From: an uncultured Chloroflexia bacterium
Lineage (GTDB): Bacteria; Chloroflexota; Limnocylindria; QHBO01
DNA: 64,000 nt
Direction: 5' to 3'
Assembly: GCA_963816215.1 (NCBI GenBank)
Contig: CAWFKB010000005.1
Location: 5,309-69,308 of the forward strand
Shown here: in pieces, positions 8,408 to 55,624 of the stretch
Numbering within the stretch: position 1 is the first letter of the stretch
Layout: each line of letters begins with the position of its first letter
Made by a program: the position numbers and the translations under genes
Notes under the pieces: model-generated
Database searches by the model: none
Seen by the model: the letters and a program-made list of their open reading frames with translations, nothing else
What the model was told of the DNA's origin: nothing

Positions 8408-8533
8408 GTGTGCCGTCCTTCTCGTTAGTCCGTCGCCATCTCGTGGAGCTCAGGAGGCCCACCGTACTCGGTGGCACTGCGGCCTGACTGCGGCGGGGAC
8501 TCGCCTCCGTCCTTCGATCCGTCGCGGTCGCGC

Positions 8534-8682: not shown

Positions 8683-8745
8683 AAGGGTCGCCTAGCCGCG
8701 TCCCACATGGGCGGATGTTGCGCGTTCGGGCCACGAGGTGAGTGT

Positions 8746-9975: not shown

Positions 9976-10061
9976 CACGGCCTCCACCATACCCCCCACC
10001 CCTGCGGCCGCACTACGGTGGTCCTGCCTCTCTTCGGGTCGATGCTCACACACCGAGAGCG

Positions 10062-39562: not shown

Positions 39563-41196
39563 GCCAGGGGCGTTTCGGGATCCCAACCCTCGAGCCGCTT
39601 ACGCACATCGGCCATGAAGTAGCCGACCTGGGCGCCGTCGAGGACGCGGTGGTCGAATGAGCAGGTCATGTTCATCATGTGCCGGACGGCGATCACGTCG
39701 GCGCCATCCACCTCGATCACCTTGGGCCGCTTGACAATGGCTTCCATCGACAGGATGGCCACTTCGGGGGCATTGATGATCGGCATCGATGAGATCGACC
39801 CGAACCACCCGGTGTTGTTCACGGTGAACGTCCCGCCCTGGATCTCGTCGAGCTTGAGCCGGTTGGAACGAGCCCGGGCGGCGAGGTCCTGGACCTTACG
39901 ATTGACCCCGCTGATCGAGAGCTGATCGGCGTCAGCGATAACCGGCACCACGAGACCATTTTCCACGGCGACCGCGATGCCGATGTTCAGGCGGCTCTTG
40001 AGGATGATCCGATCTCCGGCGAACTGGCTGTTCATGGTCGGATGGGCGCGCAGGCCTTCGGTGACGGCCTTGATCACGACCCCGACGTAGCTGATGCCAG
40101 TCCCCTCGCGGGCCTTGTACGCCTCGTTGTTCGCCTCACGCCAGCGGACCACGTTGGTCATGTCGACCTCGACCACGGTGTAGGCGTGGGGGACGGTCTG
40201 CTTGACCTGGGTCATCTTGGCCGCGATGCCCCGCCGCATCTGGGTCATCGGCCACTCCACGTCGCCACCAATGGGCGCGGGAACGGCGGCTTCCGGAGCA
40301 GGAGCCGGCGCGGGCGAGGGCGCTGAAGGTGCTGGTGCTGCGGGTGCGGGCGCCGGAGTCGCCGCCACGACCGGAGTCGCCGGGGGAACGGCGGCGGCGG
40401 CCGCGGCCAACGGCGGCGGGGGAGCGACGACGGGTGACGGTGCTGCCGGCTCGGGTTCTGGTGCTGCCGGCTCGGGTTCTGGTGCTGCCGGTTCGGGTTC
40501 TGGCACCGTCTCGGCCGCTGGAGCCGCAGCCGCCGCGCCTTCGCGTCCCGCCACGAATGCCAGGACGTCGTCACGGGTGACGCGCCCACCAGCCCCGGTG
40601 CCGGGGATCTCGGTCACGTCAAGATTGTGCTCGCGGACCAGGCGGCGCACGGCCGGCGTCATCCGCATCGAGCCATCGGTCGCCAGATCCTCTTCGGCCA
40701 CAGCCGTAACCGCGGCCATCGGATGCGGCTCGGGTTCGGGTTCCGCCACGGGCTCGGGCGCTGCTGCCGGCTGTGATTCGGAAGCCGCCTGGGCGATCGC
40801 GATGTCCTCGGTGATCGGTTCCGCTGCCTCGCTCGCCGGCGGCGCCTCGAGCTCGGGTTCGGGGGCCTCAGGGAGGGCAGGCGACTCGGCGGCGGCGACC
40901 GGCTCGGCCGCTTGCTCAGCTGCGGGCACGGGCTCCGGGGCCGCTGCGGCGCCCTCGCCGTTCTCGCTGATCTCGGCCAGGGGCGTCCCGACCTTCACCG
41001 TCTGCCCGTCGCCGACCAGGATATTGGTCACCACCCCGCCGACTTCGGCAGGGACTTCGGCGTTGACCTTGTCGGTCACGACCTCGAACAACGGGTCGTA
41101 CTGGGCCACGCTGTCGCCCACCTTGACCAGCCATCGCTCGATGGTGCCCTCGGTGACCGACTCGCCCAGCTGCGGCATCTTGATCGTGGTTGCCAT
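39559..41196 (-). CDS. Dihydrolipoamide acyltransferase E2 (single lipoyl domain, long Ala/Pro linkers)
   Basis: Lipoyl domain MATTIKMPQLGESVTEGTIERWLVKVGD...VTDKVNAEV, a peripheral subunit-binding domain, and the catalytic motif DHRVLDGA at the C-terminus. Confidence 0.85.
   Translation of the reverse strand: MATTIKMPQLGESVTEGTIERWLVKVGDSVAQYDPLFEVVTDKVNAEVPAEVGGVVTNILVGDGQTVKVGTPLAEISENGEGAAAAPEPVPAAEQAAEPVAAAESPALPEAPEPELEAPPASEAAEPITEDIAIAQAASESQPAAAPEPVAEPEPEPHPMAAVTAVAEEDLATDGSMRMTPAVRRLVREHNLDVTEIPGTGAGGRVTRDDVLAFVAGREGAAAAAPAAETVPEPEPAAPEPEPAAPEPEPAAPSPVVAPPPPLAAAAAAVPPATPVVAATPAPAPAAPAPSAPSPAPAPAPEAAVPAPIGGDVEWPMTQMRRGIAAKMTQVKQTVPHAYTVVEVDMTNVVRWREANNEAYKAREGTGISYVGVVIKAVTEGLRAHPTMNSQFAGDRIILKSRLNIGIAVAVENGLVVPVIADADQLSISGVNRKVQDLAARARSNRLKLDEIQGGTFTVNNTGWFGSISSMPIINAPEVAILSMEAIVKRPKVIEVDGADVIAVRHMMNMTCSFDHRVLDGAQVGYFMADVRKRLEGWDPETPLA
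40439..40501 (-). repeat. Three tandem copies of a 21-nt unit encoding (EPEPAAP)3 in the E2 linker
   Basis: ggtgctgccggctcgggttct repeated three times on the plus strand, in-frame within the E2 gene. Confidence 0.8.
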
Positions 41197-41216
41197 CGGT
41201 CCGGAACTCTAGCCGA

Positions 41217-42206
41217 TCAGAACGCGGCCAGCCGACGCGCGGCTTCGGCAATGCGCTCGGGGTTGACCATGAACCAGTCCTCGAGGTTGTGGGCGAACGG
41301 GACGCCGGGCACCTCGGGACCGGTGAGGCGGGTAACCGGCGCATCGAGGTGTTCGAAGCCGCCCTCCGCGATGACGGCGGCGATCTCGCCCCCGAAACCG
41401 CCGAACCCATTCGCCTCGTGGACGACGAGCGCGCGACCAGTGCGGGCGACCGATGCGAGGATCGTCTCGGTGTCGAGCGGGCGGAGGGTCCGAAGATCCA
41501 CGACCTCGGCCTGGATCCCGTCCTGGGTGGCGAGCGCTTCGGCGGCCTCCAGTGCGCAGTAGCGCATGTACCCGTAGCAGAAGATCGACAGATCGGTGCC
41601 TGCTCGAGCCACCACCGCCGGACCGATGGGCACGAGTCCATCGCCGTTGTCCGGGACGCCGGCCTTGAACAGCCGATAGGTCTTCTTGTGCTCGAAGAAC
41701 ATGACCGGGTCGGGGTCACGGATGGCCGCCTTGAGCAGGCCGTAGGCGTCGGCCGGAGTACCCGGGGCGACAACCTTGAGCCCAACCGTCGCGGTGAAGT
41801 AGGCCTCGTTGGACTGCGAGTGGTACAGGGCGCCGTGGACGCCGCCGCCGTACGGCATGCGGATGACGAGGGGCACCCCGAACGCCCCGTTGGAGCGGAA
41901 GCGCATACGGGCGATCTCGCTCACGATCTGGTTGAAGGCGGGGTACACGAAGTCGGCGAACTGGATCTCGGCCACCGGCCGAAGGCCGTAGAGCGCAGCG
42001 CCCATGGCCGCCCCTGCAATGAGGCCCTCGCTCAAAGGCGTGTCGAGCACGCGCTTGTCGCCGTACTTGGCCCACAGGCCATCGGTGGCGCCGAAGACGC
42101 CGCCTTTGCGGCCCACGTCTTCGCCCATGACCATGACCCGGTCATCCGCGGCCAGTTCCTCGTCCATGGCCCGCCGAATCGCCTCGAGGATGTTCATCTC
42201 GGCCAT
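41217..42206 (-). CDS. 2-oxoacid dehydrogenase E1 component beta subunit
   Basis: Start MAEMNILEAIRRAMDEEL (M55 of the track ORF, top 42206). Transketolase-like Pyr and C-terminal domains. Confidence 0.85.
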   Translation of the reverse strand: MAEMNILEAIRRAMDEELAADDRVMVMGEDVGRKGGVFGATDGLWAKYGDKRVLDTPLSEGLIAGAAMGAALYGLRPVAEIQFADFVYPAFNQIVSEIARMRFRSNGAFGVPLVIRMPYGGGVHGALYHSQSNEAYFTATVGLKVVAPGTPADAYGLLKAAIRDPDPVMFFEHKKTYRLFKAGVPDNGDGLVPIGPAVVARAGTDLSIFCYGYMRYCALEAAEALATQDGIQAEVVDLRTLRPLDTETILASVARTGRALVVHEANGFGGFGGEIAAVIAEGGFEHLDAPVTRLTGPEVPGVPFAHNLEDWFMVNPERIAEAARRLAAF

Positions 42207-42207
42207 G

Positions 42208-43212
42208 TCAGGACCCGTCCGCATAGACGTGGCGCATGATGGTCGACAGGTCAGGCTCGGGGTGGGCCTCGGCCCGGGCGGCGGCCTCGACCACAGACGC
42301 CTTGACCTCGGCCCGCAGCGCTTCGTCGGCGGCGTCGTCCAGCAGGCCCCACTCCCGGAGGCTGGCACCCAGGCGAGGGATGGGGTCGTTCTCCTTGAGC
42401 GCCTCGACCTCGGCGGAGTCGCGGTACCGCCGCTGGTCGTCGTCCGAGGAGTGGCTCGTGAGGCGAACCACGTGGGCCTCGATCAGGGTTGGGCCGCCGC
42501 CGGATCGGGCCCGCTCGTGCGCCTCCCGACCAGCCGCATAGCAGGCCAGCAGGTCGCCACCGTCCACCTCGATCCCCGGGAAGCCGTACCCCGCCGCGCG
42601 GGCGGCCACCGAGCCGCCACCCACCTGGCGTGCCAGCGGGACACTGATCGCGTACCCGTTGTTCTCGCACACGAAGATGACGGGCAGGTGCAGGACGCCG
42701 GCGAAGTTCATGCCCTCGTGAATCTCGCCCTGGTTGGCGGTTCCCTCGCCGAAGGCGGTCATCGCCACCGCGTCATCCCCGCGCACCCAGGCCCCCAGGC
42801 CCAGCCCCACGGCGTGGAGCACCTGGGTGCCCACCGGGGAGCTCACGCTGAGGATGTTGTGCGCTGCGGCGCCGTAGTGCCCCGGCATCTGGCGGCCGCC
42901 CGACGAGATGTCGTCACCCTTGGCCAGGTGGGCGGTGATGATGTCCTCGGGGGTCATCCCAAAGGTCATCGCCGAGGCGATGGACCGATAGAAGGGCGCG
43001 AGCCAATCGTGGTGCTTGCGCAGGGACCAGGCGATGCCGACCTGGGCCACCTCGTGGCCCTGGACGCTGATGATGAAGGCAATCTTGCCGGCCCGCTGCA
43101 TCAGCCACATCCGTTCGTCGACGGCCCGGGCGGTGAGGACCTGGCGGTACATCGCCAGCACGTCCTCATCGGTCAGGCCCAGCGCGCGGTGGGGTGCCTC
43201 GGTCATGGTCAT
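42208..43212 (-). CDS. 2-oxoacid dehydrogenase E1 component alpha subunit (TPP-binding)
   Basis: TPP motif GEGTANQGEIHEGMNFAGV...VCENNGYAIS. Confidence 0.85.
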   Translation of the reverse strand: MTMTEAPHRALGLTDEDVLAMYRQVLTARAVDERMWLMQRAGKIAFIISVQGHEVAQVGIAWSLRKHHDWLAPFYRSIASAMTFGMTPEDIITAHLAKGDDISSGGRQMPGHYGAAAHNILSVSSPVGTQVLHAVGLGLGAWVRGDDAVAMTAFGEGTANQGEIHEGMNFAGVLHLPVIFVCENNGYAISVPLARQVGGGSVAARAAGYGFPGIEVDGGDLLACYAAGREAHERARSGGGPTLIEAHVVRLTSHSSDDDQRRYRDSAEVEALKENDPIPRLGASLREWGLLDDAADEALRAEVKASVVEAAARAEAHPEPDLSTIMRHVYADGS

Positions 43213-43215
43213 CGG

Positions 43216-44634
43216 TCAGATGTGGATCGCGGCCCCGTCGACGGCCAGGGCGGCCTCGGCCAGGACCTCGGTCAGGGTGGGATGAGGATGAACCGACATC
43301 GCGATCTCCTCCGCGGTCCCTTCCACCAGGCGCGCGAACGTGGGCTCCGCCAGCAGGTCGCCGGCGTGGGCACCGATGATATGCGCCCCGAGCAGCTCCC
43401 CGGTCTGCGCATCGGCCACGAACTTCGCGAATCCGTCCACCTCGCCCACGATCGTCGCCTTGCCCAGCGCCCGGAATGGGAAGGACCCGATCTTCACCGC
43501 GCGGCCGGCCGCGGCGGCATCAGCCTCGCTCATGCCCACGCTGGCGATCTCGGGTCGGCAGAAGGTGACGCGCGGCATGAGGTCCATCCGGATCGGATCG
43601 GGCTCCAGCCCCGCGATGGTCTCGACCGCCAGGACCGCCTCGTGGCTGGCCACGTGGGCCAGCGCATAGCCGGGCACGATGTCACCGATGGCGTACAGGT
43701 GCGGAACGTCCGTCCGCAGATGGCCGTCGACCAGGACGTAGCCGCGCTCCATGCGCAGGCCGTCCAGCTGCTCCAGACCGATGTTCTCGGTCACGGGACG
43801 CCGCCCAATCGCGACCAGGATCCAGTCGCTCCCGACCTCGGTCCGCGTACCGCCGTCGTTGGCGATGATCGCGTGGCGGATGCCGGCATCGGTCCGCTCC
43901 AGCGAACCGGGGTCGATGGTCGATGCGGTGTGGACCTCGATCCCGCGCTTGCGGAACAGGCGATGGAGCTCCTTGCTGACCTCCGCGTCCTCGAGCGGCA
44001 CGACGCGGTCCAGGAATTCCACCAGGCGAACCTGGGCGCCGAGGTCGTGGTACAGGCTCGCCCACTCCACGCCGATCGCGCCGGCGCCCACGATCGTGAC
44101 CGATTCGGGGATCCGGTCGCGCTTGAGCGCCTCGTCCGAGTCGATCACTCGGTCCTGGTCCACGTCCAGGCCGGGGAGGGCCTTTGGCGCGCTGCCGGTG
44201 GCCAGGATGAGGTCGGTGGCACTGGCCTCCAGCTCGCCGGACTCGCCCCCGCCCACCCGAACGCTGGTGGGACCGGTGAGGACCCCGTGCCCGCGCAGGA
44301 TGGTCACGCCGTTCTTCTTCATGAGGAACTCGACGCCCTTGACGTGCTTGTCGACCACAGCGTCGCGGCGCTGGCCCAGCGCAACGGGATCCACGCCCAG
44401 CCCATCGGTCCCGGTCAGCCCGAACTCGGCGCCCTGCTCGCGGGCGCGGTGGAACAGGCCGGCCGTCTCGAGCAACGCCTTGGACGGGATGCAGCCGCGG
44501 TTGAGGCATGTCCCGCCCATTCGGTCCCGTTCGACGAGACCGACCTTCATCCCGAGCTGCGCCGCCCGAATGGCGCCGACGTAGCTCATCCCGCCGCCCA
44601 GGATGAGCAGGTCGTATCGCTGCTCGTCGTTCAC
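43216..44634 (-). CDS. lpd: Dihydrolipoyl dehydrogenase (E3)
   Basis: FAD motif DLLILGGGMSYVGAIRAAQLG, redox disulfide GGTCLNRGCIPSK, C-terminal dimerisation HPHPTLTE. A GTG start at 44634, abutting the thioesterase stop, is preferred over ATG 44685. Confidence 0.85.
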   Translation of the reverse strand: MNDEQRYDLLILGGGMSYVGAIRAAQLGMKVGLVERDRMGGTCLNRGCIPSKALLETAGLFHRAREQGAEFGLTGTDGLGVDPVALGQRRDAVVDKHVKGVEFLMKKNGVTILRGHGVLTGPTSVRVGGGESGELEASATDLILATGSAPKALPGLDVDQDRVIDSDEALKRDRIPESVTIVGAGAIGVEWASLYHDLGAQVRLVEFLDRVVPLEDAEVSKELHRLFRKRGIEVHTASTIDPGSLERTDAGIRHAIIANDGGTRTEVGSDWILVAIGRRPVTENIGLEQLDGLRMERGYVLVDGHLRTDVPHLYAIGDIVPGYALAHVASHEAVLAVETIAGLEPDPIRMDLMPRVTFCRPEIASVGMSEADAAAAGRAVKIGSFPFRALGKATIVGEVDGFAKFVADAQTGELLGAHIIGAHAGDLLAEPTFARLVEGTAEEIAMSVHPHPTLTEVLAEAALAVDGAAIHI

Positions 44635-45074
44635 TTCGGTCGCTCCAGGCTGCGGCCCTCGTACCTTTCGAAGGCCGCGCGCCATTCGGCGGGGACGGGG
44701 ATCGGCTGCTCCGTCCCGTAGTCGTAGGCCACCAGCACGGTCTGCGCCTCGGCCGCGAGGCGGGTCTCGGCCTCATCGCCGTGGCCGGCCGTCATCCGAT
44801 GTGAAAGGGAGAAGCTCGTGCGCCCGATCCAGTCCACGCGGCTGTCGACCACCACGCTCATCCCGAACTCGATCGGGGCACGGTAGTCCACGTCAATGGC
44901 GGCCAGGATGACGGGCATCTCCTGGAAGACCTCGACATGGAGGGTATCGATCAGATAGTGGATGCGAGCCTGCTCGAGGTAGGTCACGAACGCCGCGTTG
45001 TTGACGTGGCGAAAGGCATCGATGTCCCGAAACCGGACCTCGAGGCGGGTTCGGTGGCGATAGGCATCGGTCAC
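44631..45074 (-). CDS. Hotdog-fold acyl-CoA thioesterase (YbgC/4HBT-like)
   Basis: 147 aa, RFRDIDAFRHVNNAAFVTYLEQAR 4HBT signature. Confidence 0.7.
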   Translation of the reverse strand: MTDAYRHRTRLEVRFRDIDAFRHVNNAAFVTYLEQARIHYLIDTLHVEVFQEMPVILAAIDVDYRAPIEFGMSVVVDSRVDWIGRTSFSLSHRMTAGHGDEAETRLAAEAQTVLVAYDYGTEQPIPVPAEWRAAFERYEGRSLERPK

Positions 45075-45111
45075 GGACTGCCGATTCTAGCCGCCCGCGC
45101 CCGAATCCCGG

Positions 45112-46287
45112 TCACAGCGCCTGGTCGATCCGGGCAATGAGTCCGGCGACCAGGCTGGTCCGTGGCACGACGCTCCCCAGGTCGAGCCATTCGGCCGGGG
45201 CATGGTCGTCGCCTCCGATCGGGCCCAGGCCGTCAAGGGTGGGGAGTCCGACGGCGGCGGTCGTGTTCGCGTCGGACGCGCCGCCCGTCGCGGCGTCCTG
45301 GACCGCGAACCCCAGCTCGCCGGCGACCGATTGGGCCAGGGTCACCAGGCGCGCGGTGGCCGGGGACTTCTCCATGGGTGGATGCGAGGCGATGACCGAG
45401 AGCTCGCTCGTGGTGTCGGGCACGTGGGACCGACCCGCGATCTCGCGCAGGACGTCCTCGGCCTCGGCGAACTCGGCGGCGCTGGCCGCGCGGAGATCGA
45501 CCTCCAGGCGACACGTCTCCGCCACGACGTTGGGGCGCGTTCCGCCTGCGATCACGCCCACGTTGCAGGTCACGGTCGGCCACCGACCGTTGAGCTCGGT
45601 GAGGGCTTCGACCATGCGGGACGCGGCGAGGATCGCATTGCGCCCCTTCTCGGGCTCGATCCCGGCGTGCGCGGCGCGCCCGTGGACTGTCAGCGCGATG
45701 TCCGCGATCCCCTTGCGGGCGCTGACGATGTCCCCGTTGGCGCGGGCGCATTCAAGGACGAGCGCCGCGTCGTGATCCGCGGCGAGGGTCCGGATGTGCG
45801 GCCCGGAGAACGGTGAACCGATCTCCTCGTCGGGATTGGCGACGAAGGTGACCGATGGATGGATGCCGGTGGCCAGGAGCGCCGCGAGTGCCGACAGGCC
45901 GGCCAGGAGGCCGCCCTTCATGTCGGACACGCCCGGACCCAGCGCCCGGTCGCCTTCGGTCCGGTACGGGCGGGCGGCGGCGGTACCGGGGTCGAACACG
46001 GTGTCCATGTGACCGATGAGCAGGAGCCGGGGGCCGCTGCCCGTGAGCGTTCCAACCACGAGGTCGCCCAGGGGCCGCCCGTCGGGTGCGGTCCCGCCAT
46101 CGGTCCGGCTGACCAACGCGCCCATGGTCTCGAGTCGCTGGCTGACGAGGTCAGCCACCTGGTTGACCCCCGTTGGGGTGTACGAACCGCAGTCGATCCG
46201 GACCAGGAACTCCAGGTCGGCGAGGTACGTCGGAAGGTGCTCCTCGACGGCGCCGCGGATCGTGGACAGGGCTGGGCTGGCGGTCAT
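45112..46287 (-). CDS. M20 family metallopeptidase (ArgE/DapE/CPG2-like)
   Basis: Metal ligands in LLLIGHMDTVFD, GVSDMKGG and ANPDEEIGSP. Start MTASPALSTIRG at top 46287. The 621 upstream codons of the track ORF are antisense to the cphA-like gene. Confidence 0.75.
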   Translation of the reverse strand: MTASPALSTIRGAVEEHLPTYLADLEFLVRIDCGSYTPTGVNQVADLVSQRLETMGALVSRTDGGTAPDGRPLGDLVVGTLTGSGPRLLLIGHMDTVFDPGTAAARPYRTEGDRALGPGVSDMKGGLLAGLSALAALLATGIHPSVTFVANPDEEIGSPFSGPHIRTLAADHDAALVLECARANGDIVSARKGIADIALTVHGRAAHAGIEPEKGRNAILAASRMVEALTELNGRWPTVTCNVGVIAGGTRPNVVAETCRLEVDLRAASAAEFAEAEDVLREIAGRSHVPDTTSELSVIASHPPMEKSPATARLVTLAQSVAGELGFAVQDAATGGASDANTTAAVGLPTLDGLGPIGGDDHAPAEWLDLGSVVPRTSLVAGLIARIDQAL

Positions 46288-46311
46288 GGGCCCGAAACTA
46301 TACTGGCCGCC

Positions 46312-47913
46312 ATGGCCTCCGACCGCTCGACCGAGCCGGCCGCCGAGCTGCTCGAGCTGCGGGTGCTGGAGGGGCCGAATCGCTTCGCCAACCGGCCGGC
46401 GATCAAGATCGAGTTCAGCGGTGAACCCGACGCGGTCGTCGACGTGGCGCGCGCGGCCGGCCAGGCAGTCCGTGACTTCCACCGGGCATTGGGGCTGCCC
46501 GTGCCGCGGGTTACGTTTCGTCGTTCGGCTGACCGGACACGGGCGATGGCGGCGTTCGCCTGGCGGCGCCGGACCATTGCCCAGGCCATCGCCGGTGCCG
46601 CAGCGCGGGTCGCGCTGGGCGGAAGCGAGCGACGCGAGCTGCGCGCCCTGCGGGCGGTCGCCAGCGGCCAGCGGCCGGTGCTCCCCGTCCCGCGGGTTCC
46701 GATCGTGGCCATCACCGGGACCAACGGGAAGAGCACGACCACCCGGCTGATCGCCCAGGTTGCGTCCCACGCCGGGATGCGGGTGGGGATGACCAACTCG
46801 GACGGGATCTACGTCCGCGGGGAGCTCGTCGAGGCGGGAGACTGGACCGGGTTCGGGGGCGCGGGCCGGATCTTGGCCGAGCCGGACCTGGACCTGGCGG
46901 TCCTCGAGACCGCGCGCGGCGGGATCCTGCTGCGCGGGATCGGGTACGAGCACAACGACGTGTCCGTGGTCACCAACGTCAGTGCGGATCACCTGGGGTT
47001 GCAGGGGATCGACACCCTGGACGAGCTGGCCGAGGTCAAGGGCGCGGTGGTCCGGATCACGAAGCGCGGGGGATGGGCCGTGCTGAACGCGGAGGACCCC
47101 CGGGCGTGGGCCATGCGCGCCCATTCGCGCGCGCGTCCGTACGCCTTCAGCCTCGACCCCCGGGCGCCCGGCGTGGCCGAGGCGCTGCGCGAGGGTGGAC
47201 GCGCGGCGGTGCTGGAGCGCGGGGCGCTGGTGCTTCGCCGCCGCGGATCGCGACCAGTGCGTCTGGCCAGGGCCGCGGATCTGCCCGTCACGTTCGCCGG
47301 GCTGTCCCGCTACAACATCGCCAATGCCCTCGCGGCCGCGGCGGCCTGCGACGCGCTCGGTATGCCCGCCGGCCAGATCGTTGCCGGGCTGTCGTCCTTC
47401 GCCCAGGACGAATCGGTCAATCCAGGGCGCTTGAACCTGTACGGACGGAACGGCGTGCTGGCGCTGGTCGACTTCGCCCACAACGAGGCCGGACTGGCCG
47501 GGCTGCTGGAGGTGTGCCACCGCCTCGCGTCGAGCCGCGGCGGAAAGGTCCGGCTCGCGCTCGGGACGGCCGGCGACCGGACGGATGAGATCCTCCACAA
47601 CCTCGGTGTCCTCGCCGGCGCCCGATCCGACGACCTCGTGATCTGCGAGAAGCGCCATTACCTGCGTGGTCGGAACCTGGGCGAGATGAACGCCATCTTC
47701 CGGCGCGCGGCGGCCGAGGCGGGATACCACGGCCGAGTGACCGCGTATGCCACCGAGCTGGGCGCGTTTCGGGCGCTGCTCGCCCGGAGCCGGCGAGGCG
47801 ACGTGGCGGCGGTCATGAGCCACGTCGAGCGGGCCGAGATCTTCGCCTGGCTGGCGAAGGAGGGCTATCGGCCCATCACCCTGGCCCGCCTGCGGACCCT
47901 GGTTACCCGTTAG
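46312..47913 (+). CDS. Cyanophycin synthetase-like protein with partial N-domain plus Mur-ligase (M) domain, lacking the ATP-grasp (G) domain
   Basis: N-terminus LLELRVLEGPNRFANRPAIKIEFS parallels the CphA start RIVEERVYRGPNFWSYEPAIKLIVDL. Residue ~135 onward, PVLPVPRVPIVAITGTNGKSTT, aligns with the CphA M-domain start PVLDILFPPGTPVRIPIVAVTGTNGKTTT. There is no intervening ATP-grasp region of about 320 aa. Confidence 0.7.
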   Translation: MASDRSTEPAAELLELRVLEGPNRFANRPAIKIEFSGEPDAVVDVARAAGQAVRDFHRALGLPVPRVTFRRSADRTRAMAAFAWRRRTIAQAIAGAAARVALGGSERRELRALRAVASGQRPVLPVPRVPIVAITGTNGKSTTTRLIAQVASHAGMRVGMTNSDGIYVRGELVEAGDWTGFGGAGRILAEPDLDLAVLETARGGILLRGIGYEHNDVSVVTNVSADHLGLQGIDTLDELAEVKGAVVRITKRGGWAVLNAEDPRAWAMRAHSRARPYAFSLDPRAPGVAEALREGGRAAVLERGALVLRRRGSRPVRLARAADLPVTFAGLSRYNIANALAAAAACDALGMPAGQIVAGLSSFAQDESVNPGRLNLYGRNGVLALVDFAHNEAGLAGLLEVCHRLASSRGGKVRLALGTAGDRTDEILHNLGVLAGARSDDLVICEKRHYLRGRNLGEMNAIFRRAAAEAGYHGRVTAYATELGAFRALLARSRRGDVAAVMSHVERAEIFAWLAKEGYRPITLARLRTLVTR

Positions 47914-50744
47914 GCGAAGCCGTCGCCGTCGGCGACCTCCGATTCGTCGGTCGGGCCGCTGCCTCCGTTCCCCTCGACCTCGTCCGCGCCATCGGCTCCG
48001 TTGGGCGTCCCGTGGCGACGGTGCTGGAGCTCCTTCCAGGCCAGGTTGGCGTGGTCCACGCACAGGACGACGATGTCCCCCTCCTTGCCCAGGTCGAGCG
48101 CGCGACGCGTAGCCTCCAGCTCGTCGAGCACCGTCTCGACTTTCCGGCATCGCGCCCCTTCGGCCATCGCCGCCGTGATGCCTTCGTGGATGAGCGCCGC
48201 CGTGGTGCCCCGCGCCCGTCCCCGCGTCTTCGCGTCCTCGCGGATGACGATCCGATCGAAGTAGCGGGCGGCCACCTGACCCAGCTCGCGGATATCGCGG
48301 TCGCGCCGGTCACCGGCCGTGGCCACCACCCCGATCCGCTTGCCGGTGACCAGTGGCTGGTGGCCGTTCGACGCTTCCGCCGACACCGCATCGATGAAGG
48401 AGCCCAGCGCGGTCATGGCGTGCGGGTTGTGCGCGTAGTCGACCAGGACGCGGTAGCCGTCGAGGTCGAACAGGTTCATGCGGCCGGGCGCCTGGAAGTA
48501 CGACGTGGAGAAGGTCCGCAGCCCCTGGCGGATGTCGTGCAGGTGGGCACCGGCAGCCCACGCCGCCGCGGTCGCGGCCAGCGCATTGGCGACGTTCATC
48601 CGGGCCCGCCCCTCGAACGTGGCCGGAATGAGGTGGGTCCAGACCAGGGGCAGACTCTTGCGTCCCTGGCGCAGGACGATCATCTCCCCGTTGCGACCCT
48701 GTTCCAGGGTCACCGAGCGGCGGCCGCGGGACCCCTGGCGGCGGAGCGTCTCGTTGTCGGGATTCATGCTGAAGTAGATGACCGCGCCCGAGCAGGCAGC
48801 CGCCATCTTGGAGACGAGCGGATCGTCGGCATTCAGGACCGCCGTCCCGCTGCGGGGAACCGCTTCCACGATGACCTGCTTCACGCCAGCCAACTGGCGC
48901 ACGCTGTTGATCCCGCCCAGGCCCAGGTGGTCGGCCGCCACATTGAGCACGACCGCGACCTCGTTGCGCTGGTAGCCCAGGCCCTCGCGCAGGATCCCGC
49001 CTCGCGCCACCTCGAACACCGCGGTGTCGACCAGCGGGTTCTGGAGGACCATCGAGGCGGACTTCGGCCCGCTCATGTCCCCGCGCCGAATCATCCGACC
49101 GTCGATGAAGATGCCATCGGTGCTGGTCATCCCAACCTTGCGGCCCATGCCCTTGAGGATGTGGCTGATCATCCGGACCGTGGTCGTCTTCCCATTGGTG
49201 CCGGTTACGGCCACGATCGGGATACGCACCGGCGTGCCGGGCGGGAAGAGGATGTCGAGCACTGGCTTGGCCACGTACTGGGCCTCGCCCTCGGTCGGGT
49301 TGGTGTGCATCCGGAACCCAGGGGCGGCGTTGACCTCCACGATCCCGCCGCCCGTTTCCCGAACGGGGAGGCTGATATCGGGGCACACGAAGTCGATGCC
49401 CGCGATGTCGAGGCCCACGACCTTGGCCGCCTGCTCGGCGATCTCGGCGTTCTCGGGGTGGATCTCATCGGTCCGGTCGATGCTGATCCCGCCGGTGCTC
49501 ATGTTCCCGGTTCGTTTGAGGAAGACGCGCTTCCCCTTGGGCGGCACCGTGTCGAGCGCGTGACCCTGCTCCGCGGCGTAGCTCACCGACTCGTCGTCGA
49601 CCGCGATCCGGGTCAGCACCTTCTCGTGACCGATGCCCCGGCGCGGGTCGGCGTTGGTGATCTCCACCAGCTCCGCCACGGTGTGCTTGCCGTCGCCGTC
49701 CACGTGAGCTGGGAGACGCTGGGCCACGGCGCGCAGGACCCCGCCCACGACCAGGCATCGGTAGTCATTGCCGACCAGGTAGGACTCGACCACGACCCCG
49801 CCGAAGCGCGACTCCTCGCGGGCGGTGGGGTAGGCGGCGCGAACCGAGGCTTCGTCGCCCAGGTTGAGCATCACGCCCCGCCCGTGGTTGCCGTCCAGGG
49901 GCTTGATGGCCACCGGAAACCCGATCCGCGCCGCCGCCGTGACCGCTTCCTCCGGCCCGCCCACGACCTCAGCACGCGGCACGGGGACGCCGGTGGCGGC
50001 CAGCAGCCGATTGGTGAGCTTCTTGTCCTGGGCGATGTCGACGCCCAGGGCGCTGGTGTGGGAGGTCATCGTGGCCCGGATCCGCTTCTGGTGGACGCCA
50101 TGGCCCAGCTGGACGAGGGAGGCCTCGTTCAGGCGGATCCAGGGGATGTCGCGCAGGTTGGCCTCGTCCAGCAGTGACTGGGTGGACGGGCCGAAGGCCG
50201 CCCGCTCGGCCAGGCGGATGAGCTGTTCGAACTCGGTCTGGTAGTCGAAGGTGGGGTCGGGTTCGACCAGGTGGTTCACGAGGCGGACCGCCAGGTGCCC
50301 CGCGGCGAGACCGACCGACTCCTCGGCGTAGGTGTAGATCACGTGATAGCGCCCCGGCTGGCCGGTGGAGCGGGTCTTGCCCCGGCCGACCTCGGTGCCC
50401 GCGTCACGCTGCACCTGCAGGGCGATGTGCTCGGCCACGTGGCCCAGCCAGGTGCCGTCGCGCAACCGTTCCTCGAATCCGCCTCGTCGACCGGTTCCGC
50501 ACGAGTGGGCGGCGACTCCCGGGACCGTGGCCAGCAGCTTTTCGGTGAAGCCGGGCAGCTTGTTGGTGGGGTATTCCTCGAGGGGCCCGAGATCGACGAT
50601 CAGCTTGATCGCGGGCTCATACGACCAGAAGTTCGGGCCGCGGTAGACGCGCTCCTCGACGATGCGCAGGGTCCCACCCGGGGTCGCGGCCGGAGGGGTC
50701 GCGCGCCGGGCTTTTCGGCCGCCGGGCGAGGCGGCTTTGGTCAC
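47910..50744 (-). CDS. cphA: Cyanophycin synthetase (N, ATP-grasp and Mur-ligase domains)
   Basis: 944 aa. ATP-grasp core (PVAIKPLDGNHGRGV) and Mur ligase P-loop VTGTNGKTTT. 4-nt convergent overlap with the cphA-like gene. The ATG overlaps the cphB stop. Confidence 0.9.
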   Translation of the reverse strand: MTKAASPGGRKARRATPPAATPGGTLRIVEERVYRGPNFWSYEPAIKLIVDLGPLEEYPTNKLPGFTEKLLATVPGVAAHSCGTGRRGGFEERLRDGTWLGHVAEHIALQVQRDAGTEVGRGKTRSTGQPGRYHVIYTYAEESVGLAAGHLAVRLVNHLVEPDPTFDYQTEFEQLIRLAERAAFGPSTQSLLDEANLRDIPWIRLNEASLVQLGHGVHQKRIRATMTSHTSALGVDIAQDKKLTNRLLAATGVPVPRAEVVGGPEEAVTAAARIGFPVAIKPLDGNHGRGVMLNLGDEASVRAAYPTAREESRFGGVVVESYLVGNDYRCLVVGGVLRAVAQRLPAHVDGDGKHTVAELVEITNADPRRGIGHEKVLTRIAVDDESVSYAAEQGHALDTVPPKGKRVFLKRTGNMSTGGISIDRTDEIHPENAEIAEQAAKVVGLDIAGIDFVCPDISLPVRETGGGIVEVNAAPGFRMHTNPTEGEAQYVAKPVLDILFPPGTPVRIPIVAVTGTNGKTTTVRMISHILKGMGRKVGMTSTDGIFIDGRMIRRGDMSGPKSASMVLQNPLVDTAVFEVARGGILREGLGYQRNEVAVVLNVAADHLGLGGINSVRQLAGVKQVIVEAVPRSGTAVLNADDPLVSKMAAACSGAVIYFSMNPDNETLRRQGSRGRRSVTLEQGRNGEMIVLRQGRKSLPLVWTHLIPATFEGRARMNVANALAATAAAWAAGAHLHDIRQGLRTFSTSYFQAPGRMNLFDLDGYRVLVDYAHNPHAMTALGSFIDAVSAEASNGHQPLVTGKRIGVVATAGDRRDRDIRELGQVAARYFDRIVIREDAKTRGRARGTTAALIHEGITAAMAEGARCRKVETVLDELEATRRALDLGKEGDIVVLCVDHANLAWKELQHRRHGTPNGADGADEVEGNGGSGPTDESEVADGDGFA

Positions 50745-51730
50745 TCGCTGGCTTCCTCGAGGGGCCGGGAGCGGACCGTCCGCTTGCGCGATCGCTCAGG
50801 GGCGGTGTCGTCGGCTCCCTCCGCCGCGATGCGGCGGATGAGGCGCCGGGTGCGCTCGGTGGCCGCGCTCACCGCGGCAACCTCGCGATCAGTGGCGTCC
50901 ACCGGGCGCAGGGTCGCGCGCAGCTGGCGTCGCCGCAGGTCGAATCGGTATCCCGCGGGAAGGCTATGCAGGACTACGCCGCTGACCATGATCGGTCGGT
51001 AGCGCTTGGCCTCGTAGGCATCGGTCTGGAGATGGGCCGGGTCCAGGATGGTGACCGAGCCCCTGCCGATGACCTCCAGCAGCCCGGTCGGGGCGACCAG
51101 CGCGGCGGTGTCCTCGTCGATACCGATGCCCAGCAGTCCGGGCGACTGGGCGACCAGTGCCAGGAGGCGACCGATCCGGTTGCGCTGCTCGAAGTGCTGG
51201 TCGATGACGACACCGGGCAGGAGGCCGAGCCCCGCGCTCATCTGGGTCATGCGCTGCTTGGGCGTCGCCCCGCCGGTGCCGAAGGCGACCATGTGGCTGG
51301 CAATCGCCGATGCGCCCGCACTCGTGCCGGCCACGACCAGCCCGCGTCGATGGTTCTCGAGCAGCGCGCGACCGAGCCGCGTGCCGCCGACCACGGCGGC
51401 GAGCCGAAGCTGGTTGCCCCCGGTCAGGAACACGGCGGTCGCTTCGTCGACCATGTCGGCCACACCGGGGGCGTCTGCTTCCTCGCGAAGGAGGGGGCGT
51501 ACCGCGTTCACCTCGGCCGCGCCAAGCTGGCGGAACACCTGGGCATAGAGGTCCGTTGCCTCGTCCCCGAGCGAGGACGCGGTGGAGATGACCAGGATCC
51601 GCGCCGTGGGGCCTCCGGCGAGGCTCACGAAGCGGGTCAGGATCGTCTTGTGTCGAAGCTTGTCCTCCGCGCCGCCGATGATCAGCAGATGGCCGGCGCG
51701 GGGCCGCGCAGAGCGGGCGGTCGCAGCCAT
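50741..51730 (-). CDS. cphB: Cyanophycinase (peptidase S51)
   Basis: LLIIGGAEDK and VVAGTSAGASAI catalytic-Ser motifs. Start MAATARSARP at top 51730. Upstream track-ORF residues are artefact. Confidence 0.85.
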   Translation of the reverse strand: MAATARSARPRAGHLLIIGGAEDKLRHKTILTRFVSLAGGPTARILVISTASSLGDEATDLYAQVFRQLGAAEVNAVRPLLREEADAPGVADMVDEATAVFLTGGNQLRLAAVVGGTRLGRALLENHRRGLVVAGTSAGASAIASHMVAFGTGGATPKQRMTQMSAGLGLLPGVVIDQHFEQRNRIGRLLALVAQSPGLLGIGIDEDTAALVAPTGLLEVIGRGSVTILDPAHLQTDAYEAKRYRPIMVSGVVLHSLPAGYRFDLRRRQLRATLRPVDATDREVAAVSAATERTRRLIRRIAAEGADDTAPERSRKRTVRSRPLEEASE

Positions 51731-51783
51731 TGCCCGTGAGCATAGCAATCCCGATCCAACTCGCGGACCCGTACACTCGTCGG

Positions 51784-52950
51784 ATGCCCAGCTCGGCAGA
51801 CGTCCTCCACCAGGACCTCGACTACTACGCCGTGCTCGACGTGGACCCCGACGCCACCCTCGACGAGCTCCGCGTCGCGTTTCGACGAGCCGTCCTCCAC
51901 CATCATCCGGACCGCAGCGACGCGTCGGCACCGCTCGCCACGCGGCGGACCTCGCTCCTGAACCGCGCATGGTCCGAGCTGCGCGACCCGGGTCGTCGCC
52001 GGTCGTACGACGGAGCCCTGGCCCGGGGGGACGCGGCGACGGTGGCCTGGCCGCTGTCCCCCGGCGAGCCGCTCCCGGCCGGGGCGCGTGCGACGCGACG
52101 GCCGCGGAAGACCCGCGAGCCCGCGGGGCCCAGCCCCTGGCACCAGCCCGCCTGGCGGTCCGTGGCCGGGTTCCGCGTTCCGGCCGCCGTGTTCCTCGAC
52201 CAGCCGGACGCCCAGCGCCGTTGGATCGTCGAGCACTACATCCAGGGCCAGGATTGGCGCGATCACCGGGAGCGGTACTGGCTCCGGTTCGTGGCGGACT
52301 ACTACCACGATCGAGGGCGGATCGAAGACTGGGTCGGGGTTCTGGAGCGGTTGGTCGAGATCGATCCCTCGTTCGAGACCCTCGTCCGGGCCGACCTCCG
52401 CAATGCCTACCAGGCCTCCGACCGGCATCTCGCCGGGGCGAGCTTCCTGGGAGAGGTGGGGGAACGCTGGGCACCCGGATCGGTGCCCCGGGCCTGGCTG
52501 GAGCGCGAGGAGCGCGCGCTGTTGGCGGACTTCCGCGACCAGCACGTCCGTCGTGGAACGGACCGAGCCAACCAGGCGGACCTGCTCCTCGACTACCTGG
52601 CCAGCCTCGACCTGGAGCCCACGCCCACCGACCTGCGGGCGGCCTATGCCGCCTACCGGCGGGCCGGGCGGACCGATGCCGCCGGAGCCTTGCTGGATCG
52701 GCTGCTGGCCATCCCGGTCACCGATGGCGATGGGTGGTACACGCGAGTTCAGCTCCTGACCGAGGCAGGAGCTCTCGACGCTGCCTCGGCGTTGCTGGCC
52801 GAGATCGCCCGGGGCGAGCACCCCGCTGCCCTGGATGGACGCCGTCTCCGCGGTCAGCCCTCGGTTCGCATTGCCCGCGCGCGGGACCGCCTGGTGCGGG
52901 CGAAGCGCCGCAAGGAGCCGGCCGCCAGCCGGCGGTCGGCCGAAGGCTAG
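51784..52950 (+). CDS. J-domain (DnaJ-like) protein with helical/TPR-like C-terminal region
   Basis: DYYAVLDVDPDATLDELRVAFRRAVLHHHPDR is a J domain with the HPD motif. Start at M19 of the track ORF. Confidence 0.6.
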   Translation: MPSSADVLHQDLDYYAVLDVDPDATLDELRVAFRRAVLHHHPDRSDASAPLATRRTSLLNRAWSELRDPGRRRSYDGALARGDAATVAWPLSPGEPLPAGARATRRPRKTREPAGPSPWHQPAWRSVAGFRVPAAVFLDQPDAQRRWIVEHYIQGQDWRDHRERYWLRFVADYYHDRGRIEDWVGVLERLVEIDPSFETLVRADLRNAYQASDRHLAGASFLGEVGERWAPGSVPRAWLEREERALLADFRDQHVRRGTDRANQADLLLDYLASLDLEPTPTDLRAAYAAYRRAGRTDAAGALLDRLLAIPVTDGDGWYTRVQLLTEAGALDAASALLAEIARGEHPAALDGRRLRGQPSVRIARARDRLVRAKRRKEPAASRRSAEG

Positions 52951-54308
52951 GAGTCGGCGGGTCGGACGACCTCCACCGGACCCAGGTCGGCGGCCTCGAT
53001 CGGACCCCGGACCCGGGACGCATCGCCGGCCAGGACGATGAGCGACTCCGCCGGTCGCAGGAGATCGACCGCGGCCTGGTGGGCCTCGACAGGGCCGACG
53101 GCTTCCACCCGGTCGCGATAGGTTGCCCACCAGTCGTGGTCCAGGCCGTACACCGCGATGGGCTCGATCCCGGCGGCTGCGCCCATCGTCGTCTCGAAGC
53201 GGAGCGGGAAGACGCCGATCATGTAGTCGGTCACTTCCCGCAGCTCCGAGGCCTCCGGTGGCGCCGCCTGCATGCGCTCCAGCTGGAGCAGCGTCTCGCG
53301 GATGGCATCGGCGGTGACCTCGGTCTGGACCGCGGCCCGGGCCGAGAAGGGGCCCGCCGAGCGGCGCGGGTCGAAGGCCGCTCGCGCCCCGTAGGTGTAG
53401 CCCAGCTCCTCGCGCAAACGCTGGTTCAGGCGGCTGCTGAACGTCCCGCCCAGCAAGCCGGCCATGACCATGGCCGGGAAGTAGTCCGGATGGCGGCGGT
53501 CGATCCCGACGTGACCGATGCGCAGCTCGCTCTGGACCGATCCGGGCCGATCGACGATGACCACCCGCCGCCCCCCTCGATCGGAGACGTCGATGGACCG
53601 ATGGCCGGGGCTCGTCCCCGCCCAGTCGCCAAAGGTGGCCTGGACCTGGTTCGCGACCGCATCCACGTCCACCGGTCCGGCCACGACCAGGTGGGACCGA
53701 TCCGGGCGCCAGTTCCGCGCGTGGTGGGCGCGCGCCTGGGACACGACAAGCGGTTCCACTGTCTCTGGCGTGCCGGCCGACAGCCGGCCGTACGGGGCGC
53801 CCTCGCCGAAGACATGGCGCAGGAAGAACTCGTCGGCCAACCGCCCCGGTTCGGAGCGAGCCTGGAGGATGTCGGCCAGGCGCTCCTCGCGGATCCGATC
53901 GAACTCGCCCTCGTCGAAGCCCGGCTCGCGGACCATCTCGGCCAGCAACGCGAGCCCGGCCGTCCACTGGGCCCGCAGGGCGACGAAGCCGGCACGCGCC
54001 ACGTCCCACGACGAGTCGGCGAAGAGCTCGATCCCCAGGCGTTCGCTGGCCTCGGCGAGGGCATGTCCGTCCAGGCGCTGGGTCCCGGTGACGAGCGACT
54101 CCGCGGTCAGGGCCGCAATCCCGCCTTCGGCCTCCGACTCCGATGCCGCGCCGCCGTCGACCAGGAGGTGGACGCTCACCATGTCGCGGTCGGGGAGGGG
54201 GACGACCCACAGCGTCAGGCCGCTGTCCAGCGGTCGATGGATGAAGTTCGGGAAGTGGTACGGCCGCGGCGCGCCGGGCGCGGGGCGGAGCGGGTTGGGG
54301 TCCGTCAT
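52947..54308 (-). CDS. M16 family peptidase, non-catalytic partner subunit (no HxxEH motif)
   Basis: Insulinase fold without an HxxEH motif. Coupled 4-nt overlap with the upstream M16 gene. Confidence 0.8.
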   Translation of the reverse strand: MTDPNPLRPAPGAPRPYHFPNFIHRPLDSGLTLWVVPLPDRDMVSVHLLVDGGAASESEAEGGIAALTAESLVTGTQRLDGHALAEASERLGIELFADSSWDVARAGFVALRAQWTAGLALLAEMVREPGFDEGEFDRIREERLADILQARSEPGRLADEFFLRHVFGEGAPYGRLSAGTPETVEPLVVSQARAHHARNWRPDRSHLVVAGPVDVDAVANQVQATFGDWAGTSPGHRSIDVSDRGGRRVVIVDRPGSVQSELRIGHVGIDRRHPDYFPAMVMAGLLGGTFSSRLNQRLREELGYTYGARAAFDPRRSAGPFSARAAVQTEVTADAIRETLLQLERMQAAPPEASELREVTDYMIGVFPLRFETTMGAAAGIEPIAVYGLDHDWWATYRDRVEAVGPVEAHQAAVDLLRPAESLIVLAGDASRVRGPIEAADLGPVEVVRPADS

Positions 54309-55624
54309 GCCGCCGCCGCTCCGTCCTCATCGGTCGCACGGTCGACCTCGTCGTCGTCATCGGCCGGCACGTAGGTGAGGACGAGTCGGTTGTCCGCACC
54401 CGCCTGCGCGCCCACGGCCCCGCGGATGTGGTCGGCGCTCACCGCGTCATAGCGCGCGATCTCGGTGTTGATCTGGTTCGGGTCGTCGAAGAGGCACGCG
54501 TACTGGCTGATCCGGTCGGCTCGCTCGCCCAGCTGCTCCAGGCCCACCTCCACGGCCGCGGCGTGCATGGTCCGCACCCGGGCCAGCTCGTCGTCGGCGG
54601 GGCCATCGGTCGCCAGCCGGCCGATCTCTTCGAGCAGGCGCGCTTCCAACGCCTCGATCTCGACCTCGGGCCGGGCGGTGGCGTAGCAGGCGATGGCGGT
54701 CGAGCCGCCGACCCACGGGAACACGAAGGCCCCGATGTCCGCGGCCAGCTGCTCCTCGCGGACGAGGGTCCGATACAGGCGGCTCGCACGACCCGTGCCC
54801 AGCAGGTCGCTGACCACGTCGAAGGCCTGGTGTCCATCGGTCCCGAAGGGGGGAATCCGGTACGCGACGTGGACCCGGGGCAGCTCGACCTGGTCGGTCA
54901 CCGTCTCGCGGATCTCGCCGCCCAGGCTGTCCGGAACCTCCCCCGAGGGCGTTGGCGGCCGAACCGGGTTGGCGGGGATGGGTCCGAAGTGGCGCTCGAT
55001 GGCCGCCAGCGCGGCATCCCGATCGATGTCGCCGGCCACGGTCAGGACCGCGTTGTTGGGGGCGTAGTAGGTCGCAAAGAAGCGGCTCACGTCCTCCATC
55101 GACGCGGCGGACAGATCTTCCATCGACCCGATCGTCGAGTGGTGGTACGGATGCCCTTCCGGCCACAGGAGGGCCTGGAGGCGCTCCTCCCAGGTCCCGT
55201 AGGGCTGGTTGTCGACCGACACCCGCCGCTCGTTCTTCACCACGTCGCGCTGGTTGTCGAGCTTTTCCTGGGTCATGGCCGGCAGGAGGCTGGCCATGCG
55301 GTCCGCTTCGAGCCACAGCACCAGCTCGAGCTCGTGGCTGGGCACGGTGTCGAAGTAGTTGGTCCGATCGTTCCAGGTCGACGCGTTCAGGGTGCCGCCC
55401 GCGGCCTGGATCTGGGCGAAGTGCTCACCCTTGGCCACGTTGGCGCTGCCCTGGAACATCATGTGCTCGAACAGGTGCGCGAAGCCGGTCTTGCCCTGCT
55501 CCTCGTTCCGGCTCCCCACGTCGTACCACAGGTTGACGGCCACGATCGGGGTGCGGTCGTCGGGGGACAGGATCACCCGCAGGCCGTTGTCCAGCTGATG
55601 ACGTTCGATGGGAACGTGGGCCAC
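54305..55624 (-). CDS. M16 family zinc peptidase (catalytic subunit)
   Basis: HLFEHMMFQGS inverted zincin motif (HxxEH) followed by the insulinase fold. Confidence 0.85.
   Translation of the reverse strand: MAHVPIERHQLDNGLRVILSPDDRTPIVAVNLWYDVGSRNEEQGKTGFAHLFEHMMFQGSANVAKGEHFAQIQAAGGTLNASTWNDRTNYFDTVPSHELELVLWLEADRMASLLPAMTQEKLDNQRDVVKNERRVSVDNQPYGTWEERLQALLWPEGHPYHHSTIGSMEDLSAASMEDVSRFFATYYAPNNAVLTVAGDIDRDAALAAIERHFGPIPANPVRPPTPSGEVPDSLGGEIRETVTDQVELPRVHVAYRIPPFGTDGHQAFDVVSDLLGTGRASRLYRTLVREEQLAADIGAFVFPWVGGSTAIACYATARPEVEIEALEARLLEEIGRLATDGPADDELARVRTMHAAAVEVGLEQLGERADRISQYACLFDDPNQINTEIARYDAVSADHIRGAVGAQAGADNRLVLTYVPADDDDEVDRATDEDGAAAA

Follow-up and report, generated by a model that had tools for sequence, protein, structure and literature searches.

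A cyanophycin synthetase paralog without the ATP-grasp domain, conserved beside cphA1 and cphB in Chloroflexota and Actinomycetota

A 64,000-nucleotide stretch of DNA from an uncultured Chloroflexia bacterium (contig CAWFKB010000005.1, positions 5,309 to 69,308; hereafter the window) carries a cyanophycin gene cluster in which the genes for cyanophycin synthetase 1 (cphA1) and cyanophycinase (cphB) are joined by a gene for a 533-amino-acid (aa) CphA1 paralog without the ATP-grasp (G) domain, referred to below as the G-less protein or ligase. This paralog belongs to an old, conserved and previously uncharacterised branch of the cyanophycin synthetase family, and is a clear, conserved extension of cyanophycin gene clusters rather than a system of a new kind. 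Its probable role is a so far unstudied step of cyanophycin metabolism in soil Chloroflexota and Actinomycetota and, judged from its sequence, the product is predicted with moderate confidence to serve as an accessory ATP-dependent ligase for a carboxylate of cyanophycin or of cyanophycin fragments. The window has a G+C content of about 70% with its nearest protein relatives in Candidatus Limnocylindria (Chloroflexota), and the cluster is laid out as follows.

45112-46287, minus strand: M20 peptidase, 391 aa
46288-46311: spacer of 24 bp between the divergent M20 and ligase genes, read from the sequence
46312-47913, plus strand: G-less CphA paralog, 533 aa
46312-46689, plus strand: reduced CphA-type N domain of the G-less paralog (aa 1-126), from profile and structure comparison
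46690-47913, plus strand: Mur-ligase-type M domain of the G-less paralog, core and lid (aa 127-533 and stop codon)
47910-50744, minus strand: cphA1, cyanophycin synthetase 1 with N, G and M domains, 944 aa
50741-51730, minus strand: cphB, cyanophycinase (S51; TIGR02069, Peptidase_S51)

An initial annotation of this region had placed an extra CphA-like protein at 46312-47913, and the gene calls agree with it. The junctions that it described were also read in the sequence: the TAG stop of the paralog and the TAA stop of cphA1 have the four nucleotides TTAG in common, giving a 4-nt convergent stop/stop overlap, GTGA on the minus strand holds both the stop of cphB and the start of cphA1, and 24 bp separate the start of the paralog from the divergent M20 peptidase gene. 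The CphA1 of the window scored 1153.8 bits with the NCBIfam model TIGR02068 (cut-off 850), with Pfam matches to Cyanophycin_syn, ATP-grasp, Mur_ligase_M and Mur_ligase_C, and its N domain carries the HxxEH motif as HVAEH. CphB scored 240.3 bits with TIGR02069 (cut-off 126.6) and matched Pfam Peptidase_S51, identifying it as a cyanophycinase.

In a Pfam scan the G-less paralog matched solely Mur_ligase_M (aa 134-346; 64.9 bits, cut-off 24) and Mur_ligase_C (aa 372-503; 32.9 bits, cut-off 28.4), with neither ATP-grasp nor PF18921 matched. TIGR02068 aligned over model positions 478-848 only, with 371 bits against the cut-off of 850, such that the paralog, with no G domain, falls outside the definition of CphA1 while sharing with it a catalytically intact M domain and a CphA-type, albeit reduced, N domain. 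A full-length AlphaFold2 model built on 29 family members (predicted local distance difference test score, pLDDT, 94.9; predicted template modelling score 0.93) has a beta-beta-alpha-beta-beta-alpha-alpha N unit at aa 11-114 followed by the Mur P-loop strand from aa 131. Because the N fold passes straight to the P-loop strand, a hidden ATP-grasp fold in aa 130-200 is impossible on this model. The initial annotation had proposed that the G domain is skipped and had named beforehand a cryptic ATP-grasp in these residues as the finding that would speak against it; no such fold was found. Lacking the G domain of about 320 aa, the paralog cannot extend the Asp backbone of the polymer. The other reduced CphA paralog, CphA2 (PDB 7TA5, 8FXH), similarly keeps a non-catalytic N domain and one of the two reactions of CphA1 (PMC10273328). 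However, CphA2 has the G domain with a truncated, inactive M domain and polymerises beta-Asp-Arg (PMC10273328), whereas the paralog drops G and keeps the full M domain, a difference in architecture that had been pointed out from the start. The paralog is thus outside the definition of CphA2 and is effectively its mirror image.

The N region of the paralog was expected from the first reading of the sequence to be CphA-like, and this held, with the qualification that the domain is reduced and lacks the HxxEH/Cys motif. By BLASTP against the neighbouring CphA1 the N-terminal match was short (paralog aa 5-33 against CphA1 aa 14-48, E 0.002), while a profile of the region from 19 family members aligned by hhalign with 20 CphA1 N domains over 116 columns with a probability of 96.4% (E 1.2e-9). 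When a separate AlphaFold2 model of aa 1-129 (pLDDT 92.9) was compared with the PDB by Foldseek, the 14 best matches were all CphA1 or CphA2 N domains, with query-normalised template modelling (TM) scores of 0.58-0.64 for 13 of them and 0.44 for 7ta5; behind them came LuxS proteins, to which the isolated N region had weak matches (TM about 0.35). The motif E-x-R-x-L-x-G-P-N is conserved in the G-less N region. The HxxEH/Cys motif, invariant in the 20 aligned CphA1 N domains, is absent from the G-less proteins, and in the lineage of the window the loop that bears this site has gone as well. In CphA1, the HxxEH motif and Cys loop form the cryptic peptidase site that generates primers (PMC9262961). 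The N region of the paralog is therefore a cut-down, degenerate CphA N domain without the peptidase site, its fold being homologous to that of CphA1.

With CphA1 (PDB 7LG5, 7WAE) the paralog also shares a homologous M domain of 35-39% identity, in which the P-loop, Mg2+ ligands, D-H pair and lid Arg and His residues are identical, and a place in the same gene cluster with cphB. The match to the M domain of the neighbouring CphA1 has 39% identity (BLASTP, E 1e-61), and the modelled M domain superposed on that of TeCphA1 (7wae_A) with a root-mean-square deviation of 1.7 Å over 396 columns (Foldseek, E 1.8e-38). The P-loop, GTNGKST at aa 136-142, follows the GxxGK(T/S) pattern of the Mur ligase superfamily and, together with both Pfam domains, places the paralog in that superfamily. 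With the Mur ligases proper and their relatives (MurC-F, FolC, CapB, MurT) the paralog shares the two-domain ATP-dependent ligase fold and motifs, including an equivalent of the MurE DNPR Arg, but it has a CphA N domain in place of the UDP-binding N-terminal domain and a cyanophycin rather than a cell-wall context. Its NCBIfam scores fall far under every Mur, FolC and MurT cut-off (for murE 86.6 against 257), and its best PDB sequence matches were CphA1 structures with 235 bits, against about 60 bits for MurE and a lower score for FolC. The second ground on which the initial annotation was prepared to give way was orthology to MurE, FolC or CapB if the gene pairing were also absent elsewhere; such orthology was rejected on the family-model scores and the PDB sequence matches, and the pairing with cphA1 and cphB recurs (see below).

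A comparison of 57 G-less sequences, with overall identities of 37-83%, found K140, E199, D226-H227, R373, H390-N391, D422-R423 and R452 to be invariant in all 57, a set that spans the lysine of the P-loop, the glutamate of the Mg2+ site, the D-H pair and the Arg and His of the lid. In SuCphA1 the counterpart of this D-H pair is D585/H586, mutation of which inactivates the M domain (PMC9262961), while the further catalytic counterparts in TeCphA1 are K499, E558, R731 and H748 (PMC9427784). As these catalytic residues are invariant throughout, the G-less ligase is apparently an active enzyme rather than a decaying copy or a pseudoenzyme, and the claim that its M domain is complete was upheld by the Pfam matches as well as by residue conservation. 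The same residues together with a separate deep clade (see below) rule out a recent degenerate copy or pseudogene, and the complete cphA1 next door together with the paralog's own N domain rules out a split cphA1 gene. In the CphA1s that adjoin G-less paralogs the M-domain catalytic residues are intact in 47/47 cases, so that the extra ligase does not replace a dead domain, and compensation for an inactive M domain in the neighbouring CphA1 could be discarded.

On the substrate side the two families differ. The near-invariant CphA1 lid residues R814, D817, R835 and D837 are lost in the G-less family, the D837 position being occupied by K in 33/57 sequences and otherwise by T, L or A. Also lost is the near-invariant CphA1 E627, equivalent to SuCphA1 E607, which makes contact with polymer that occupies the peptidase site of the N domain (PMC9262961). 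Residues specific to the G-less family are Y450 (100% conserved) and R507 (95% conserved). When aligned with Escherichia coli MurE, CphA1 D837 and its G-less replacements fall at D413, Y450 at N414 and R507 at E468, with MurE R416, the Arg of the DNPR motif, conserved in MurE, CphA1 and the G-less family. The DNPR motif of MurE, together with E468, binds diaminopimelate at its distal charged groups. Because the residues differ at these amino-acid-selecting positions, the amine or acyl substrate of the G-less ligase is probably different from that of the arginine reaction of CphA1, and the pattern suggests an incoming substrate, perhaps an acidic or neutral one, that is bound otherwise than arginine would be by CphA1. 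Between two of the outcomes raised in the initial annotation, the residue pattern would favour a different product over the addition of Arg exactly as by CphA1.

The G-less family is both large and varied. An exact-sequence look-up of the paralog gave no record, and its relatives were used in the comparisons; more than 120 close ones, 533-554 aa in length, were found. An exhaustive search of 50%-identity representatives with the paralog gave 1272 matches below 1e-30, and among the best 150 of these 83 were 500-620 aa in size, 40 of which were inspected and mostly had the N-terminal motif E-x-R-x-L-x-G-P-N. An M-domain phylogeny of the kind called for in the initial annotation was run by neighbour-joining on 134 M domains. 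The G-less proteins and the CphA1 M domains separated without exception into two clades, within which the sub-topologies mirror each other. Such a tree suggests that the G-less gene and cphA1 arose by an old duplication and were inherited together from then on. No Pfam or NCBIfam model covers the G-less family as such, and relatives of about 540 aa are named "cyanophycin synthetase" by JGI and "Mur ligase family protein" by NCBI. With KO-style naming as cyanophycin synthetase, metagenomic counts of cyanophycin producers in Chloroflexota and Actinomycetota would include G-less genes and so be inflated. No description of a G-less CphA was found in a literature search, the coverage of which was incomplete such that an earlier mention is possible; under "CphA3" this search found Aeromonas beta-lactamase papers only. 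A pseudomurein paper places two divergent sequences annotated as MurE/MurF in its CphA clade.

Conservation of the locus was surveyed in 86 loci, 80 from a scan of one genome per species and six from look-ups of encoding contigs, which were screened by tblastn with the window proteins (locus numbers prefixed L below are those of this survey). The G-less protein was present in 56/86, its carriers being Limnocylindria, Chloroflexia-type and other Chloroflexota metagenome-assembled genomes (MAGs) and, in the Actinomycetota, Nocardioides, Kribbella, Terrabacter, Marmoricola, Microlunatus, Nakamurella and Propionibacteriaceae. A full-length cphA1 lay in the available flank at 48/56 of these loci, downstream and convergent in 48/48, and was present in 43 of the 46 species-level loci whose downstream flank reached 6 kb or more; cphB was found at 41 G-less loci. 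As a control for synteny, the 2-oxoacid dehydrogenase genes, thioesterase gene, DnaJ-domain gene and M16 pair that surround the cluster in the window were kept in Limnocylindria loci only. Since the other neighbours are limited to this lineage, the conserved core consists of the G-less ligase, cphA1 and cphB.

A second, more distant G-less subfamily of about 566 aa, with the N terminus "RRLTGPN...", was encountered in an Acidobacteria MAG (L081:11979-13184) and on a metagenome contig (L087:5074-6774), in both cases immediately 3' of cphA1 on the same strand. On the latter contig the gene is followed by a 308-aa open reading frame without Pfam match and then by an Amidohydro_1/3 gene that is possibly IadA-like, while its cphA1 (L087:2274-5059) was divided by gene calling into an N+G gene (477 aa) and an M gene (451 aa), which could reflect either a genuine split or a frameshift introduced in assembly. 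In four Actinomycetota loci (L013, L014, L023 and L035, at about 8400-9990) the ligase gene comes after a gene resembling FabI/InhA-type enoyl-ACP reductases ("MGILEGK..") on the same strand, which in L013 and L014 is itself preceded by a FabG-type short-chain dehydrogenase gene, these fabG/fabI-like identities having been assigned by eye from N-terminal sequences only.

The divergent neighbour of the ligase gene encodes a protein of the M20 family, with Pfam matches to Peptidase_M20 and M20_dimer (95.6 and 80.4 bits). Its best NCBIfam match was PRK06133, "glutamate carboxypeptidase", with 295.4 bits under a curated cut-off of 349, marking it as related to that family, and its best PDB match was CPG2 (1cg2, 151 bits). 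The catalytic and dimerisation domains of CPG2 are both present and the catalytic Glu and five ligand motifs, HxD, D, EE, E and H, are aligned and conserved, the metal ligands being those known from the structural literature on CPG2. No signal peptide was evident in the 391-aa protein which, in contrast to CPG2, has no periplasmic targeting and lies in a cyanophycin context; it is predicted to be a cytosolic CPG2-like di-metal carboxypeptidase. CPG2-like enzymes cleave N-acyl-amino-acid bonds of the kind made by Mur-type ligases and present in beta-Asp-Arg. Because enzymes of this type cut the kind of bond that Mur-type ligases make, the M20 protein is by analogy a reasonable candidate for a hydrolase of the ligase product or of the beta-Asp-Arg dipeptide. 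In the latter role, and in its presence within a cyanophycin cluster, it would resemble IadA, IaaA and CphZ, which carry out the last step of cyanophycin breakdown (PMC9974463, PMC10206079). None of these known beta-Asp-Arg dipeptidases belongs to M20 (PMC9974463, PMC10206079), IadA being an amidohydrolase, IaaA an Ntn-hydrolase and CphZ an M14 enzyme (PMC9974463) with folds unlike that of the neighbour, and the neighbour, as an M20 rather than an M14 (AstE/AspA-like) protein, is not a CphZ. A specific relationship to the poly(aspartic acid) hydrolase 7LJH was discarded, the match of 52 bits being no better than that to ArgE or PepT.

The initial annotation had asked whether the pairing of the two genes recurs. 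Orthologs of the M20 protein (51-74% identity) were found at 19/56 G-less loci, in Limnocylindria, Chloroflexia-type MAGs and three Actinomycetota loci, and lie divergently upstream of the ligase in 18/19, while tblastn found no M20 copy in about 30 loci with cphA1 only; the pairing is therefore recurrent, but restricted by lineage and not universal. In the window the M20 gene is directly followed on the same strand by a string of genes (39559-45074, minus strand) for a 4HBT thioesterase and then the E3, E1-alpha, E1-beta and E2 components of a 2-oxoacid (branched-chain type) dehydrogenase, some of which overlap, and in which the E2 linker is long and Ala/Pro-rich. That the M20 gene functionally belongs to this string was rejected, as the string is found in Limnocylindria only and M20 stays by the ligase in the Chloroflexia-type and three Actinomycetota loci. 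On the other side of the cluster a DnaJ-domain gene (51730-52950, plus strand) is divergent from cphB, and beyond it lie two M16 peptidase genes (52947-55624, minus strand). The M16 pair is of interest since the N domain of CphA1 is distantly M16-like (PMC9262961), with no functional link indicated.

Within the 24-bp divergent spacer there is a single AT-rich box, which appears as TATACT (46299-46304) 7 nt before the ATG of the ligase and, on the opposite strand, as TATAGT 9 nt before the ATG of M20. The arrangement TATACT-N7-ATG is kept in eight Limnocylindria-type sequences (the window, L001-L003 and L007-L010), the box in L003 and L010 being a perfect palindrome (AGTATACT), and in the window it was observed once against 0.00 expected by chance. 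A generic scan of 45000-52000 for sigma-70 promoters and terminators found no full -35/-10 pair and no terminator. The conserved TATACT-N7-ATG supports the predicted start codon of the ligase and its expression. By itself, this arrangement suggests a leaderless ligase transcript, and both ligase and M20 may be leaderless, with shared overlapping -10 elements.

Taken as an accessory ligase, the G-less protein would function as a stand-alone ATP-dependent amide ligase and would phosphorylate a free carboxylate of cyanophycin or of one of its fragments. This carboxylate could be that of the chain end, of the dipeptide beta-Asp-Arg set free by CphB, or of a short piece, (beta-Asp-Arg)n or (beta-Asp-Arg)n-Asp. 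The activated carboxylate would then be joined to the alpha-amine of a free amino acid, with the substrate held by the retained N domain and the M core as in CphA1. Because the selecting positions differ and the charged lid residues of CphA1 are lost, the reaction is probably no simple duplicate of arginine addition by CphA1; it may use an amine substrate other than arginine, perhaps an acidic or neutral one, or a different acyl site. Such a ligase might make primers, cap chains or modify them, and the divergent M20 enzyme would hydrolyse the ligase product or beta-Asp-Arg itself. A more specific and rather improbable extension of this proposal is that ligase and M20 form a write/erase pair on cyanophycin chain ends or fragments, jointly controlling the start, extension and degradation of the polymer. 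In such a pair the ligase would add a residue other than arginine, for example Asp to beta-Asp-Arg to give the minimal CphA1 primer (beta-Asp-Arg)-Asp, or alternatively a capping residue that would block CphA1 or CphB, with M20 removing the residue that had been added.

Several observations weigh against the proposal of an accessory ligase with a substrate of its own. The substrate reading is based on the MurE alignment and on conservation patterns rather than on a liganded structure, the neighbour-joining tree was midpoint-rooted without support values, and the G-less loci are phylogenetically clustered, such that the counts given above overstate their independence. Three loci, L037 (a Nakamurella MAG), L045 (a Sphaerobacteraceae MAG) and L051 (an unclassified MAG), had no cphA1, cphB or M20 in the flank searched, which covered about 10 kb downstream and 3.9-10.4 kb upstream; either the gene works without a linked cphA1 or cphA1 is elsewhere in these genomes. 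Most Actinomycetota G-less loci are without an M20 gene, and the M20 protein is for this reason a lineage-specific, optional partner of the ligase rather than an obligate one.

A different account of the same locus, possible although unlikely, is that the G-less ligase performs the chemistry of the CphA1 M domain in trans, adding L-Arg (or Lys) to the beta-carboxylate of undecorated Asp, whether at chain ends or as free Asp. The product would be beta-Asp-Arg or the completion of chains that CphA1 left unfinished, and M20 would be the beta-Asp-Arg dipeptidase of the locus in place of IadA, IaaA or CphZ. In keeping with this, the M domain is closest to those of CphA1 (35-47% identity) with the full catalytic set, the N domain between which and the M core the polymer sits in CphA1 (PMC9427784) has been retained, and the first, primer-creating ligations are the slow steps of CphA1 (PMC9262961). 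Moreover, beta-Asp-Arg is an N-acyl-arginine and as such a plausible substrate for an M20 enzyme of the CPG2/ArgE type, and the Actinomycetota, most of whose G-less loci have no M20 neighbour, have been reported always to carry iadA and/or iaaA (PMC10206079). Against this, the replacement of the near-invariant CphA1 D837 (MurE D413), the loss of R814, D817 and R835 and the gain of Y450 and R507 would leave a pocket into which, should it function like that of MurE, a cationic side chain would fit poorly. A duplicate Arg ligase also seems redundant beside a CphA1 that has an intact M domain and an HxxEH N domain able to generate primers.

Two further accounts take the protein away from ligation on cyanophycin. 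It is quite improbable that the G-less protein is a Mur-type ligase for some other carboxylate, in cell-wall, cofactor or small-peptide metabolism, and that the proximity of cphA1 is inherited synteny. The three loci without cphA1 within 10 kb, the Actinomycetota gene directly after fabG/fabI-like genes on the same strand and substrate-side residues unlike those of CphA1 would fit such an enzyme. The linkage to cphA1-cphB nevertheless persists from Limnocylindria through Chloroflexia-type genomes to numerous genera of Actinomycetota, with every other neighbour changing, the CphA-specific N domain, by these comparisons detected in CphA1 and CphA2 only, has been kept, and the second, distant G-less subfamily also adjoins cphA1. 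Least probable of all, and very doubtful, is a non-catalytic partner, a structural or regulatory subunit docking on the CphA1 tetramer or on cyanophycin granules in the manner of the inactive M domain of CphA2. The faster evolution of the G-less proteins, the branches of which are longer than those of the partnered CphA1s, and the lost N-domain active site recall subfunctionalised paralogs, and the convergent overlap with cphA1 suggests coordinated dosage. However, ATP, Mg2+ and acyl-phosphate residues that are invariant across the whole set of sequences, at identities down to 37%, would be unexpected for a pseudoenzyme, and the inactive M domain of CphA2 is by contrast truncated (PMC10273328).

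The current picture of cyanophycin metabolism comprises two synthetase architectures, CphA1 and CphA2, together with cyanophycinases and the dipeptidases IadA, IaaA and CphZ. The G-less ligase is a third CphA architecture, which accompanies cphA1-cphB in Chloroflexota that are abundant in soil and freshwater and in Actinomycetota that can be cultured (among them Nocardioides, Kribbella and Terrabacter), and, being conserved and predicted to be active, it points to an unrecognised step, which may be primer formation, side-chain diversification or end-capping. The G-less ligase could serve as a stand-alone side-chain ligase for modified cyanophycin. Should ligase and M20 prove to be a write/erase pair, they would constitute a third enzymatic activity in cyanophycin biosynthesis and a genetically encoded source of primers in vivo.

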